Positions 11,344 through 61,390 of a stretch of 64,000 bases of DNA are shown here, in pieces (the stretch's first letter is position 1; the number at the start of each line of letters is the position of its first letter). The position numbers and the translations under genes are program-made. Source of the DNA: Gammaproteobacteria bacterium (GTDB taxonomy: Bacteria; Pseudomonadota; Gammaproteobacteria; JAJFJF01); assembly GCA_021774255.1 (NCBI GenBank), contig JAJFJF010000009.1:1658-65657 (forward strand), written 5' to 3'. The notes under the pieces were generated by a model. That model ran no database searches and was not told the origin of the DNA. It worked only from the letters and a program-made list of their open reading frames with translations.

Positions 11344-12537
11344 TCAGTAAAGTAGATCGATTTCGTCTAAGCAAGTGACGACTTGTAAAATAGAGGGTGC
11401 GTGAGGAGCGTGTTTTTGTGTATCAAGCAGCCATTCGATAATACTGTCTGGCATGGATTGCAGGTGCTCAATATCCTGCGATATTTTTTGTAGTTGTGCC
11501 TCTCTCATCGCCCACAAATTGTGTTTGCTATAGATCTCTTCTTTTTTGCTTAACCCCACTACAAAGTTAGCGTGCACAACACGAGGTCGGTGGAATTCAA
11601 AAATGGACATCCACTCCTCTCGACCTGGGTAAAAATAACGGCCAACCGCAGCATCAGGAATGGGTAAGTAATGTATTTTTAGGTGGCTTTGTAATTCATC
11701 ATCAGCTAAACCAGGGTTGTAGCTACCTACACTCAGTATTTCTTGTAAGATAGCCTGATCATGCCAGTCTTTTTTGTTCTCTCCTACGTTATAGTCGTAT
11801 GTGTCAACAATCAGCTTCATCAGCTTTATCGTGTTAGAGGTGTTACGGGCTAGGTAAAAGCCGGTGTTGCCTACATCGGCGCATTCAGTAGCAAGATAAC
11901 TGCGGTCTGTTGCACAATTGCCAACGAGGTTATCCACCATGATTTCTAGATCAGCTTCCTCTCGAGAGAGGAAAAGATCGCGAGGGTCTTCAAGCCAGGA
12001 CACATCCGCATCCGTTAAAAGCACATCAAACCCTTCACGCAATATGTTAGCGATGACACGAGGTTTTTCCACTGTCATTTGTGCATAATTTCCTTCTACA
12101 AAAGCAATTGCTCCGCTAGAGTAGTGAGTAACGCCACGCAAAGAAGCAACATGGGCACGCCCAACATGTTGATTGAGACAGACTTCGGCTCGTTCGTCTA
12201 TTGCTAAAAAGATAAAATGTCTTACCCCGAGGGTTCGAAATTGTGTTGCTAGGTTTGCGGAGAACTTGCAGAATGCCAAGTTTGAAAAAGAAAGAATGAC
12301 ACGGCCGTCTTCTGCTTGTTTGCTAATAGCTGCGTTCATGTTCTGAGGCCGCTCAGACCACGGCTCTTTTGCGGGATCGACTACGCGATCTTTTACTTCT
12401 TCACACCATCTGCCCGGAACGGCGACAATAAAAAATAGCAGGTAAAAGAAGACTGCGTTGTGCATTATTTTATTAGCTAGAGGGTCAACTATCTTCTGAA
12501 GAGGCGTTCTTTTTCTTCTAGAGATATAGCGTAACAT
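11344..12537 (-). CDS. Type-II-anchored nucleotide-diphospho-sugar transferase (Nucleotid_trans/PF03407-like, plant/protist Golgi type)
   Basis: 397 aa. N-terminal basic stretch plus TM (NAVFFYLLFFIVAVPG). LLTDADVSWLEDPRDLF is a DxD-type motif, followed by GNTGFYLARN and DQAILQEIL blocks. Family assignment is from memory of PF03407 motifs. Confidence 0.55.
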   Translation of the reverse strand: MLRYISRRKRTPLQKIVDPLANKIMHNAVFFYLLFFIVAVPGRWCEEVKDRVVDPAKEPWSERPQNMNAAISKQAEDGRVILSFSNLAFCKFSANLATQFRTLGVRHFIFLAIDERAEVCLNQHVGRAHVASLRGVTHYSSGAIAFVEGNYAQMTVEKPRVIANILREGFDVLLTDADVSWLEDPRDLFLSREEADLEIMVDNLVGNCATDRSYLATECADVGNTGFYLARNTSNTIKLMKLIVDTYDYNVGENKKDWHDQAILQEILSVGSYNPGLADDELQSHLKIHYLPIPDAAVGRYFYPGREEWMSIFEFHRPRVVHANFVVGLSKKEEIYSKHNLWAMREAQLQKISQDIEHLQSMPDSIIEWLLDTQKHAPHAPSILQVVTCLDEIDLLY

Positions 12538-12547
12538 TGGTATGTAG

Positions 12548-12584
12548 GTTACTTACACCTGACTGTTAGCCTATATCTTTAGAA
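12548..12584 (+). promoter_or_regulatory. Shared promoter-like module (CTTAC-N8-GTTAG-N3-TATAT) upstream of the sulfotransferase-like gene
   Basis: GTTACTTACACCTGACTGTTAGCCTATATCTTTAGA is very close to the copy at 61248-61284 and alignable with the cassette modules. Confidence 0.5.
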
Positions 12585-12638
12585 TGAAAAGCACTTAACT
12601 TGTCACAGTCGCCAGTTTATTTTTTTACTCAAATTGAG

Positions 12639-15494
12639 ATGGCTAAGAGGGCTGCTTTTTTGTGCGTGCTCTTCCTTTCTTTTGCTTGCGCCATGAGGCC
12701 AAGTGAAAACGATACACCAGAGAAAGCAGATGATCTTTCAACCAAGTGCCGCGCAGCTCGGCATGCTCTCAGCGCAGGCGCAGGTTTGTTGGATCTGGCT
12801 ATGCCAGAAACAGGGGGCACGGTACGACGACGTTTGTATGATGAAATTTTGTCAGGGACCTCCCAAAGACAATTTAAGCCATCGTTCGATTGCAACCCTT
12901 CTGCACCACTGATTATTGGTGATTGCGATTGTTGCTATCGATGCGGTGCTTATGGGCGGCATTTGCCGTTATCAGCCTTAATCAATTGTGCAATACGGGC
13001 ACCGGGCATTAAGTCAATATTGGAAAAGAACAAATTGTTTGTCACAGCCTTCTTGCAGAACCCTATTATACGTGTTGTTGCTGAGTACCGGCGTTCTGCA
13101 GGCTTGTTGCCATTGTCTGGGAATGTGCAAGACTCCCCTGCCATAGCACATGGCTTGAAAAAAAATGTCTCATCATTAGAAAGTTTCGTCACGTCAGAGG
13201 ATTGTCTGGCAAATAATCGACAGACGTGGATGTTAGCTTGGGATCAAGAACTTTCTGCCACTGTCATGCAAGGTAACTATTTGACTCGTCGCGAATTGCG
13301 GCGTTTCGCTTTTAATGGTGGACTTGATTTTTGGGATCGTTACTGTGGTGAAAATGGTGAGGTGGCCAGTTGCCTTGATGAAAGTACGGATTTGCTTGAT
13401 GCTGCACTGGGTCATTTGCGGAAAACGACATTTTTTGGGCTTGCTGATCAGTTGTCACGTTCTCAGGAGCTGTTTCATTGGACATTCAAAAATACCTTCT
13501 TTGATAAAACCTCTTTGGTGAGGGCAACTGAAAAGCTTCAAAAAAAAATCAGCTTGATTGAGGCGAGTATTACGTCAGAAGAGCGGCAGATGGTTGAGGC
13601 ATATAACCATTTGGATATGCTTTTGTACGATAAGGCAAAAAAAATCTTTGAGAAAAGATATGCGCTCATGAAGCGCTGTCAGGCTGCTGAGGCGACCATG
13701 GCTGTAGAGGATAAGAAAAGGCCGTATCAGAATGGTACTGCGCCTAGGGACTTGCCGATAGGCCCAAAATTTGACATGAGTAACATCACGGTTTCAGCAC
13801 TGCAGGATGTGGATGATAGGCGATGTCGTTTGATGCCGCCGCCCCCTCGCGTGCTACCGCCAAAATCCTCAAACAATAAGTATTGCCGAGAGCATATCAA
13901 AACAAGAACAGGGTTGGGCTTTGAAATGATAGAAGTCGTGCCGTATGCCTATTCTTTATATACAAAAGGATTGCTGTGTTCAACAGAAAGTGCATATGGT
14001 TCTAAAGCGCTTTATTTTTTCTCACCTCAACATAAAGAGCTAAACAAAGATCGCAGCATCACGTGGGAGCAAGAAAATATTCCGACAATAAAGCACCATC
14101 ATACCAATTTTTCTGAGTGGCTTGCGCCGCCCTATAAGCAACATTATTGCAATGAGGAGTTTGTCTATAACCGCCCTATATTGTTTATCGGCAATAAATA
14201 TAGTGTGGAGTGGGCGGGTCATGCACCAATCAATACATTGAATGAGGCGGTATTGCGTAGGCTTTTTGAATTGCTTGCAGTGCATTATCAAATTATTTAC
14301 TGGCGCCCTTATGATTTTGAATTTTCTGATCCGGCGTCTTTCTTCCTTCATGATTGGCGTGCGGACTTTGACCTGATTGAGGAATGGAATGAAGCATTCC
14401 CTTCTGCCAGCGTGTTAACCATACAGAGTTTGTTAGCGCAGCATAGCACATTTAATCTCAATGAAATTTTGTTTCGGGTATTGGCCAATACCGACAGGTT
14501 CATTAATGTGAAAGGAGGCAATGCTGTCATGACTAACTTCTTTAGCGGTGTGCAACTGCTGTACGTTGAAAGGAGTGCGCTTACCCGGGAAGAAGCCAAA
14601 GAAGAGTTTCCCTATTATACGCACTCTGAAATACATGTTGTCAAAACGTATGAGCGCTTGCTTGAAAAAGCAAAAATGCTATTTGCTCCCACAGCCACAT
14701 TGCCGCCGCCCATCTTCGCCGCCGATTTGCCACTGGCGAAACGGTTTTTGTATCTTGCATTCGTAGAAGCGGAACCTTCACCTGCATTGCTGGAAATTGA
14801 TGCGCGAGAAGATGCTGATTTGCTTGTACTATCGTCAGAATATCGTTCTCACCGAACGGATGTTTATCTCTCTCAAGCAAGCTGGAGCTCAGGCCGTAAC
14901 GCACTATACCGTGCTGCTCAAGAAATTGAACGGCGCCGAGGCTTTCCTTATGACTATCATATCTACACAGATGATGTGACTTTAAAAGCCAAAGAAAGTC
15001 GCGATCCTTTTCGATGGTGGCACAAATTTTTGCTTAAACACAAGCCTCCCATTGGCGTTGTTCGTTCTATTGATGAAGAAGTGAATGACAGTGTGGAACG
15101 TGTTAGTAGAGTATTACGCTTTAGCAAGCAGTTCATTGCTATCCGTGTTGATGCGCGAGAAAAGTTATTGCCTTACAGCGGAAAATTTGAAAACACAGAC
15201 ACACGTTTGCCGCATGCTATTTTTTCTCATGAAGCAGAGCTACTGTATCCACAGCAGGTGCTGCAGCTTGAACATATTCAAGCAAAGAGTGTATCAAGCG
15301 GTGGGGTTGCGTCAGCAAGAAAAACACAAGAGCCTGATTGGGAACTTGCAGCACAATATGTGCTTGGAGAGATGGAGGAAAGAGGGTTGCAGTGCACACT
15401 TTACCCCTTTAAATCTAATAGGACATGGCCATTTGATGCTAATAATACCGCCGCTCCCTGTCAGCCAAACAAAGAAGGCGTTGCGTTTGACTAG
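12639..15494 (+). CDS. Large multi-domain protein with signal/anchor and N-terminal Golgi-type sulfotransferase-like motifs; remaining ~600 aa of unknown function
   Basis: The track ORF starts at a TTG at 12600. The ATG at 12639 gives the signal/anchor MAKRAAFLCVLFLSFACA. MPETGGTVRRRL resembles the 5'-PSB loop (xxKTGGT) and NPIIRVVAEYRR resembles the RDPxxRxxSxY 3'-PB motif of Sulfotransfer_2 enzymes. Confidence 0.45.
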   Translation: MAKRAAFLCVLFLSFACAMRPSENDTPEKADDLSTKCRAARHALSAGAGLLDLAMPETGGTVRRRLYDEILSGTSQRQFKPSFDCNPSAPLIIGDCDCCYRCGAYGRHLPLSALINCAIRAPGIKSILEKNKLFVTAFLQNPIIRVVAEYRRSAGLLPLSGNVQDSPAIAHGLKKNVSSLESFVTSEDCLANNRQTWMLAWDQELSATVMQGNYLTRRELRRFAFNGGLDFWDRYCGENGEVASCLDESTDLLDAALGHLRKTTFFGLADQLSRSQELFHWTFKNTFFDKTSLVRATEKLQKKISLIEASITSEERQMVEAYNHLDMLLYDKAKKIFEKRYALMKRCQAAEATMAVEDKKRPYQNGTAPRDLPIGPKFDMSNITVSALQDVDDRRCRLMPPPPRVLPPKSSNNKYCREHIKTRTGLGFEMIEVVPYAYSLYTKGLLCSTESAYGSKALYFFSPQHKELNKDRSITWEQENIPTIKHHHTNFSEWLAPPYKQHYCNEEFVYNRPILFIGNKYSVEWAGHAPINTLNEAVLRRLFELLAVHYQIIYWRPYDFEFSDPASFFLHDWRADFDLIEEWNEAFPSASVLTIQSLLAQHSTFNLNEILFRVLANTDRFINVKGGNAVMTNFFSGVQLLYVERSALTREEAKEEFPYYTHSEIHVVKTYERLLEKAKMLFAPTATLPPPIFAADLPLAKRFLYLAFVEAEPSPALLEIDAREDADLLVLSSEYRSHRTDVYLSQASWSSGRNALYRAAQEIERRRGFPYDYHIYTDDVTLKAKESRDPFRWWHKFLLKHKPPIGVVRSIDEEVNDSVERVSRVLRFSKQFIAIRVDAREKLLPYSGKFENTDTRLPHAIFSHEAELLYPQQVLQLEHIQAKSVSSGGVASARKTQEPDWELAAQYVLGEMEERGLQCTLYPFKSNRTWPFDANNTAAPCQPNKEGVAFD

Positions 15495-46146: not shown

Positions 46147-46530
46147 TAGGGGCGCCAAAGGTCGCCCGCCCTGTCAGATATCAACCAACATAGTGCAACG
46201 AGGGGGAGCGCCTTCCACCAATCGTTAAAGCTTACTTTCTTTAATAAGCAAATTTAACATAATGTTTTTCGAGATATGGGTACCTATAACAATTTATAAT
46301 CAGCCCTATCTAGATTAAGGTGTTGTCTGATGAGAGGAACCAAAGGTCTTCCCCAGAGGTGGCTTACCAAGCAACATACAAAGGCAGCGCCGTGACTTTC
46401 CTTAATGCTGACAAGATTTATCATATTCATGATTTTTTTGTCTAGAACAGCAAAAAAATAAAATTTATTTATACTTTAAAATCAATCAATTACGTGTTTC
46501 TCCCCTGTTTGCCGGCTTGTTATTAGTGAT

Positions 46531-46570
46531 TTAATTAACTTACATTCGGATGTTACACCATATATAAAGA
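46531..46570 (+). promoter_or_regulatory. Cassette A promoter-like module (CTTAC-N8-GTTAC, TTACAT-N17-TATAAA)
   Basis: TTAATTAACTTACATTCGGATGTTACACCATATATAAAGA is conserved with 48331-48366 and 49581-49618. It reads as sigma70 -35/-10 with 17-nt spacing and lies 71 nt upstream of the ATG. Confidence 0.6.
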
Positions 46571-46631
46571 GTAAGTACAAGAAACGTAGCGTGCTCACTG
46601 AACAAAACAACAACCAAGCAACAGTAAGATC

Positions 46632-61247: not shown

Positions 61248-61284
61248 TGAACATACACTCCCCTGTTACTCTATATCTCTAGAC
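61248..61284 (+). promoter_or_regulatory. Shared promoter-like module upstream of the propeller/GLUG gene
   Basis: ACATACACTCCCCTGTTACTCTATATCTCTAGA compares with 12551-12583 ACTTACACCTGACTGTTAGCCTATATCTTTAGA. The spacing is identical. Confidence 0.5.
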
Positions 61285-61390
61285 AAGCAGACTCGAATAT
61301 TGATACAGGTTTTCTTGTTTTTTTTCAGAACAAAACCATCTAGCTAATTACTGAATTCTAAAAACCTAACCACATAACCAACACGTAAGG

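Follow-up and report, generated by a model that had tools for sequence, protein, structure and literature searches.

Ten copies of a 36-nt module, seven in the window (the whole stretch of DNA analysed here, 64,000 nt long) and three in a second genome, stand upstream of secreted or eukaryote-like genes. Their sequence and placement suggest that a lineage-specific regulon of host-interaction genes probably has the module as its core promoter. As such it probably switches on the host-interaction gene set, and it could serve to find such genes. The 36-nt consensus reads (t)aAC-tTACA-N6-TGTTAc-N-C-Y-ATAT-N-T-NN-AGA.

The first-pass annotation of this DNA had listed six alignable sites with identical half-site spacing. 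All six were present, with the G of GTTA at 4287, 12565, 46552, 48348, 49599 and 61265, and an anchored alignment over 36 nt showed the same half-site spacing throughout. The variable gap of 2–4 nt that had been allowed after the GTTA element proved superfluous, as the six sites align without gaps. Counting from the G of GTTA as position 0, we distinguished the blocks AAC-TTACA (−15 to −8), TGTTAC (−1 to 4), C-YATAT (6 to 11) and AGA (16 to 18), and the spacing of the four blocks is invariant. A pattern scan added a seventh copy, absent from the earlier list, on the minus strand (12552-12517) upstream of a glycosyltransferase gene. The copies in the window are the following:

4270..4305, plus strand, module copy 1 (RING gene), CCGGTTTACACGCTAATGTTATTCCATATAGACAGA, the weakest member, held-out score 12.7 bits
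12548..12583, plus strand, module copy 2, held-out score 24.3 bits
12517..12552, minus strand, module copy 7 (glycosyltransferase gene), GTAACCTACATACCAATGTTACGCTATATCTCTAGA, held-out score 35.4 bits
46535..46570, plus strand, module copy 3 (cassette A)
48331..48366, plus strand, module copy 4 (cassette B)
49582..49617, plus strand, module copy 5 (cassette C), with its leader a duplicate of that of cassette A
61248..61283, plus strand, module copy 6 (EPTP/GLUG gene), held-out score 29.2 bits

Copies 7 and 2 stand back-to-back at the centre of the 173 bp of intergenic DNA from which the glycosyltransferase gene and the gene for a 951-aa protein diverge, and the pentamer GTTAC at 12548-12552 is common to both. 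Because only these two modules occupy it, the region has no room for another promoter. The divergent pair (12517-12583) also has an exact two-fold pseudo-symmetry about 12550, the plus strand reading GTAAC-N12-GTTAC-N12-GTTAG.

The window carries, in this order, tRNA-Tyr/Gly/Thr, tuf, tRNA-Trp and secE-nusG-rplKAJL-rpoBC-rpsLG-fusA, then the S10, spc and alpha operons. No housekeeping or metabolic gene of the 64-kb window carries the module, and all ten copies, in the window and on the 13.5-kb contig of the second genome, precede secreted or eukaryote-like genes. The annotation's statement that no housekeeping gene has the module holds within the window, where 0 of about 50 other genes carry a copy. 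The module-bearing genes are monocistronic. They include the non-homologous NACHT, RNase III-like, RING, glycosyltransferase and sulfotransferase-like genes and orphan ORFs, and GLUG-family genes lie behind the module in both genomes. Those in the window are listed here:

4346..6073, plus strand, RING-finger protein of 575 aa with a C-terminal IAP/MGRN1-type RING, GC3 0.62
11344..12465, minus strand, nucleotide-diphospho-sugar transferase (PF03407) with an N-terminal membrane anchor, its start being the first ATG past the module
12639..15494, plus strand, 951-aa protein with a signal peptide, weakly similar to heparan-sulfate 6-O-sulfotransferase (E = 1.4e-4)
46632..47822, plus strand, cassette A ORF, 396 aa, no Pfam match, GC3 0.79
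48427..49104, plus strand, cassette B ORF, 225 aa, coiled-coil-like, no Pfam match, GC3 0.88
49687..50427, plus strand, cassette C ORF, 246 aa, no Pfam match, GC3 0.77
61391..64000, plus strand, secreted EPTP-repeat/GLUG/He_PIG protein, continuing past the window end

A search of 5.8 billion proteins gave no homolog of the RING protein beyond its C-terminal RING, and the N-terminus of the protein (MGNTES) resembles an N-myristoylation signal. Two small genes of the window are without the module: a 108-aa DUF4143 fragment at 2478-2804, probably the remnant of an ATPase gene, and the gene for a small RRM-domain RNA-binding protein at 6487-6771.

Cassettes A–C (46380-50670) lie just after the rplQ operon and are autonomous units, each made up of promoter, leader, ORF and trailer. 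Their ORFs are mutually unrelated and have a GC3 of 0.77–0.88, compared with 0.40–0.56 in the native genes measured. Among the cassette ORFs the large protein search covered that of cassette C only, for which no homolog was found in 1.84 billion representative proteins. The 105-nt 5′ flanks of cassettes A and C are ~87–88% identical and reach the ATG, and their 247-nt 3′ flanks are 94% identical from the stop codon on; copies A and C are related by duplication, and B is perhaps related to them in the same way. An A-rich trailer of about 130 nt is common to all three cassettes and ends in a near-perfect AT hairpin with 31-nt arms. The A-rich tract itself spans about 90 nt and in A and C is preceded by a terminator hairpin and U-run. 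The trailers were placed as follows:

47820..48065, plus strand, 3′ trailer of cassette A, with terminator hairpin and U-run, A-rich tract and AT hairpin (31-nt arms)
49106..49351, plus strand, 3′ trailer of cassette B
50425..50670, plus strand, 3′ trailer of cassette C, 94% identical to that of A

Folding of the cassette trailer gave z = −4.4, and the trailer matched no Rfam family and nothing in viral contigs. A trailer-like ACTTAAGGGT had also been reported at 6392-6401, downstream of the RING gene. It was not recovered at ≤3 mismatches against the 14-nt trailer core, and the resemblance is at chance level. Within cassette B, tandem repeats of 87 nt (29 aa) with a high content of E, Q, K and R make up almost the whole ORF (48431-49078), a composition suggestive of a coiled coil.

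A strict IUPAC pattern of the module matched the window exactly at five places and with two mismatches at one more, compared with none in 100 shuffles. With a position weight matrix the seven sites scored 34–50 bits, and the next-best of the 128,000 window positions scored 11.1. For held-out scoring, control positions were drawn from 82 other gammaproteobacterial loci and the duplicates A and C were held out together; sites 2–7 then scored 24–39 bits, above all 2,667,410 control positions. The 12.7 bits of the RING copy were reached by three control positions (~0.14 expected per window-sized stretch), and on sequence alone this copy is only marginally significant. As copies A and C are duplicates, the independent instances in the window number fewer than seven. 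Beyond the module itself, the remaining copies have flanks unrelated to one another, and no half-modules above chance were found elsewhere in the window.

To what extent the module is found beyond the window was assessed through the RNA polymerase subunit RpoA, as a marker of relatedness. Among 5.8 billion proteins, exactly one relative was more than 69% identical to it (P0123, 80%), and this protein sits on a 13.5-kb ENA contig (assembly ERZ25072490), here called L081. In 185,579 species genomes the best RpoA matches were at 60–68% identity (Endozoicomonas, Sororendozoicomonas and Zooshikella), and RpoA identity to the nearest named relatives is only 64–69%; the source lineage is a deep-branching, uncultured one within the Gammaproteobacteria. 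Three module copies were found on L081, all on the coding strand:

L081 12654-12689, coding strand, module copy, AAAACTTACCTGCCACTGTTACGCTATATATTCAGA, 35.8 bits, 102 nt 5′ of a GLUG-type lipoprotein gene
L081 11532-11567, coding strand, module copy, 21.0 bits, 25 nt 5′ of an RNase III-like gene
L081 4645-4680, coding strand, module copy, 15.2 bits, 137 nt 5′ of a NACHT gene

The control maximum, 13.5 bits in 1.33 Mb of other gammaproteobacterial DNA, lies below all three. The NACHT and RNase III-like genes of L081 have no homolog in the window, and its GLUG gene belongs to the same family as two window genes. Since L081 carries these three copies, the module is conserved across both genomes and stands before non-homologous genes. 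Homologs of the EPTP protein were at most 48% identical, and their contigs, L082 and L083, were without the motif. In 596 Gb of genomes, JGI metagenomes and viral contigs the strict motif had no match, and look-ups of the exact sequences of four window proteins gave no record. Loosening it gave one match in the JGI metagenomes, on contig L084 (36% GC), which we rejected as chance: it lies at 5800-6060 inside an unrelated repeated element, among several copies of CTTGCCTTGTTATACTAT. The repeated CTTGCCTTGTTATACTAT of that contig resembles an operator array.

The columns T−11, C−9, T−1, G0, T1, C6, A8 and T9 do not vary across the ten copies, position 7 holds a pyrimidine in each of them, and C−13 and C6 are exactly 18 nt apart throughout. 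AAC occupies −15 to −13 in 8/10 copies and is missing from the RING copy. The module holds about 32 bits of information in total, and the columns between the conserved positions are randomised both within genomes and between the two genomes. It could be supposed that common descent is all there is to explain, a promoter segment having been copied via gene duplication or a small mobile element with no shared regulator. Such a history would fit the flanks shared by cassettes A and C (105 nt 5′ and 247 nt 3′) and the agreement of copies 6 and 7 at 19 of 20 positions from TGTTAC to AGA. It is nevertheless very unlikely, given that the other copies share nothing outside the 36 nt, that variable positions are fully randomised and conserved ones invariant, and that the same pattern recurs before non-homologous genes in a genome whose RpoA is 80% identical. 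Invariant conserved columns together with randomised others indicate selection on a putative binding surface rather than recent copying (A and C excepted).

Sub-types of the module track gene class among the window copies and the L081 copy at 11532-11567. TGTTA-N3-TATATCT-N-TAGA is found 5′ of surface and glycan genes, TGTTAC-N-CCATATATAA 5′ of the GC3-rich cassettes, and TTTACACG-NN-AATGT 5′ of the RING gene (copy 1) and the RNase III-like gene of the second genome (L081:11532).

All ten copies are intergenic and co-oriented with the next gene, 25–137 nt 5′ of its start codon. By a rough estimate about 5% of window positions meet this geometry, so that ten such placements by chance would be negligible. 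Copy 4 begins directly behind a terminator-like hairpin (48304-48320) with its T-run. Between module and start codon the following leaders are predicted:

4306..4345, plus strand, predicted 5′ leader of the RING gene, no Shine-Dalgarno, no upstream ATG
12584-12638, 12466-12516 (minus strand), 46571-46631, 48367-48426, 49618-49686 and 61284-61390, the other leaders in the window
4681-4816, 11568-11591 and 12690-12790, the leaders on L081

The leaders contain 2 ATGs in 704 nt where 9.7 are expected (P = 0.002), and 16% G. The stretch from module to ATG behaves like a 5′ UTR. An earlier proposal, that the promoter class is limited to eukaryote-like or secreted-protein genes, agrees with these data: 10/10 copies are intergenic, co-oriented and placed before such genes, and the leaders are depleted of ATG. 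The energy of the duplex with the anti-Shine-Dalgarno sequence averaged 0.0 kcal/mol for the ten module-bearing genes vs −4.95 kcal/mol for 32 other window genes (Mann-Whitney p = 3e-5). Together with the ATG depletion of the leaders, this suggests that the module-bearing genes use Shine-Dalgarno-independent initiation, in which translation would begin at whichever AUG comes first in a leader that is A/C-rich and unstructured. The information-rich module and the leaders without Shine-Dalgarno point to a separate expression channel for these genes.

The same leaders, free of Shine-Dalgarno sequences and upstream ATGs, could be taken for signals of a eukaryotic type (TATA box, Shine-Dalgarno-less leader, A-rich 3′ ends) that serve expression in the host in a T-DNA-like manner. 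The cassette copies do contain TATATAAA, and the cassette ORFs have a foreign GC3 of 0.77–0.88. This idea is scarcely credible, however, as three window copies read TATATCT and so have no TATA box, the module also precedes surface proteins of bacterial type (GLUG, He_PIG), and one module-bearing surface protein of L081 has a lipoprotein signal peptide. Moreover, the A-rich tract of cassettes A and C comes after an intrinsic terminator, and no more than 25 nt separate the RNase III-like gene of L081 from its module.

For a bacterial promoter, the reading that we favor, RNA polymerase would start at or beside the conserved AGA, which lies 6–8 nt past C-YAT, at the expected start site. The predicted starts are 4303-4305, 12581-12583, 12519-12517, 46568-46570, 48364-48366, 49615-49617 and 61281-61283. 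C-YAT(AT) would be the −10 element and AAC(T)T the −35 element, as assigned from the alignment. The annotation had described a −35/−10 pair with a conserved spacer and, possibly, an embedded regulator site. The part that stands is the information beyond that of a plain promoter; the pair itself was not recognisable as a sigma-70 pair in a consensus scan, which called none of the seven window sites. The same scan does find TTGACA-N18-CAGAAT before the tRNA operon. In the best sigma-70 register, CTTACA-N16-TATATA or TATCTC, the −7 T is missing in 8/10 copies. AAC is present in the −35 region in 8/10 copies and is followed by T at −11 in 10/10, and a short invariant −10 lies at a fixed distance in all ten, with 18 nt between C−13 and C6. 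This geometry, an AAC −35 and a short −10 set 16–18 bp apart, would be that of an ECF-type alternative sigma factor and not of the housekeeping sigma-70. The ECF fit appears to be closer than that of sigma-70, as a resemblance and not as membership, and within the promoter class we tentatively put forward an alternative (ECF-like) sigma factor. A conserved spacer element such as TGTTAC is not normal for ECF promoters. Because the module holds about 32 bits, more than one reader is likely. A second reader is suggested by TGTTAC, by the imperfect dyad TTACA-N6-TGTTA, by the 13-bp repeat STTAC-N8-STTAC and by this information content; the second protein, which might activate or repress, would read TGTTAC in the spacer. 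Neither in the 64-kb window nor on the 13.5-kb L081 was a gene for a sigma factor or a regulator found.

Alternatively, the two STTAC repeats may be an activator site in place of a −35 element. In such an activator-dependent sigma-70 promoter (PmrA/PhoB model), CTTAC (−13 to −9) and GTTAC (0 to 4) would bind a tandem dimer and replace the −35, and TAT at 9 to 11 would open a weak −10 element. This is a possible though doubtful arrangement. TTAC is equally conserved in both repeats (7/10 each), the repeat ends 4–5 bp from an AT-rich block, and CTTACA/TTTACA, which in the cassette copies lies 16 bp from TATATA, resembles TTGACA; activator dependence is also the mode of the Legionella effector regulons (PMC6989116). 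The position of the module fits a site that replaces the −35, yet the −10 element is not sigma-70-like: the candidate −10 registers lack the −7 T and no site was called by the sigma-70 scan. The conserved AAC and AGA would be left unexplained. The annotation had also drawn an analogy with response regulators, which the spacing speaks against, since in every copy the STTAC half-sites recur at 13 bp and not at 10–11 bp; this period disfavors a tandem site of the PmrA/PhoB type.

A third arrangement, a constitutive promoter with a repressor operator, would have the dyad TTACA-N6-TGTTA silence the genes until a host signal. The dyad is centred ~23 bp upstream of AGA, between −35 and −10, and a centre in the spacer is a classic repressor or MerR-type position; ACA-N6-TGT is present in 7/10 copies. 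Its two arms, however, are imperfect (TTACA vs TAACA, one base out of register) and conserved asymmetrically, TGT being invariant and the last base of ACA reading A in 7/10 copies and C in 3/10, and the flanking hexamers are poor sigma-70 elements. We regard this arrangement as unlikely.

Several other elements were compared with the module, and all but the RpoS-type extended −10 were rejected. For sigma-54 (TGGCAC-N5-TTGC, with GG at −24 and GC at −12), TGTTAC has no GG and ATAT stands in the place of TTGC. For sigma-32 the spacer is 2–3 bp too short in the alignment. A T7/SP6-type promoter covers ~23 contiguous bp (−17 to +6), whereas the module is 36 bp long with unconserved positions −7 to −2 inside it, and only ACNCYATA resembles the CACTATA of that type. 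A dif/Xer-like site and an IS end were ruled out from the alignment. The RpoS-type extended −10 reads C(−13)-Y-A-T-A-M-T with T at −7. Its agreement with the module is partial: C-Y-A-T-A matches 9/10 copies, and the −7 T is missing, since the next two positions read T-M and not M-T.

Among known systems, the hrp box read by the ECF sigma factor HrpL in Pseudomonas syringae, Erwinia and Dickeya has the form GGAACC-N15/16-CCACNNA (PMC4544800 and general background). Like it, the module would be a bipartite promoter of strict spacing, its −35 containing AAC and its −10 being short and C-rich. It precedes scattered, mostly monocistronic genes, and the hrp box is likewise usable for effector prediction. 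The module is not itself an hrp box: no copy has GGAAC or its GG, the −10 block is C-YATAT, TGTTAC is an extra element in the spacer, and AGA stands at the predicted start. Only the cassette-type copies resemble CCA-NNA of the hrp box, and they do so at the wrong spacing. The half-site of PmrA is TTAA. In the intracellular gammaproteobacteria Legionella and Coxiella, a short element directly 5′ of the −10, read by PmrA or CpxR, marks dozens of effector genes (PMC6989116). The half-sites of the module are repeated like those of PmrA, and TTAC resembles TTAA. In contrast to the PmrA and CpxR elements, the module has a period of 13 bp rather than ~11, no sigma-70-type −10, and a greater length (36 bp) and information content.

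The element of LexR1, a LuxR-type regulator of Legionella, is a true inverted repeat, GTC...GAC, at a handful of genes; like the module, it was found by aligning the upstream regions of several genes and lies at a fixed distance from the −10 (PMC13555631). Unlike it, the module has an imperfect dyad and reaches through the start site. The PIP box (Xanthomonas HrpX) and the tts box (rhizobial TtsI) are long, strictly spaced boxes of ~25–30 bp that mark type III effector regulons. Their sequences are unrelated to that of the module, the organisms are different, and the regulators of those boxes are known. Phage "morons" are promoter-gene-terminator units, and cassettes A–C resemble them in being autonomous and of foreign base composition. 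They differ in that no phage context surrounds them, that searches of phage and viral collections gave no match, and that the three cassettes share both flanks but not the ORF. In kind the module would belong with hrp, PmrA, CpxR, LexR1, PIP and tts, short promoter elements that each mark out a regulon for virulence or symbiosis; the novelty lies in the sequence and length of the module, in its spacer element, in the lineage and in the absence of Shine-Dalgarno sequences.

The organisation of cassettes A–C bears on one further reading, in which the module is the front end of a standardised expression cassette. This would comprise the promoter, a CA-rich leader free of ATG and Shine-Dalgarno, the ORF and a common terminator and trailer, with foreign ORFs slotted in at the start and stop codons. 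We hold this to be decidedly unlikely. If it were true, this uncultured, host-associated lineage would have a dedicated platform for gene capture and expression, and might have its own transcription-translation channel for acquired, possibly host-derived, genes. If instead the module marks a regulon, as the reading that we prefer has it, searching the sequence for it would be enough to list the effector and surface genes in a lineage that has no culture, no genetics and no close reference genome. Homology cannot find many of the effector-like proteins, because they have no detectable homologs.

Downstream of rplQ (L17), both genomes carry accessory genes that are eukaryote-like or unmatched (L081 4272-13519; window 46147-50700). 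On L081 these are NACHT, HEAT, PF04754 transposase, RNase III-like and GLUG genes. The region after rplQ looks like an insertion hot spot common to both genomes.
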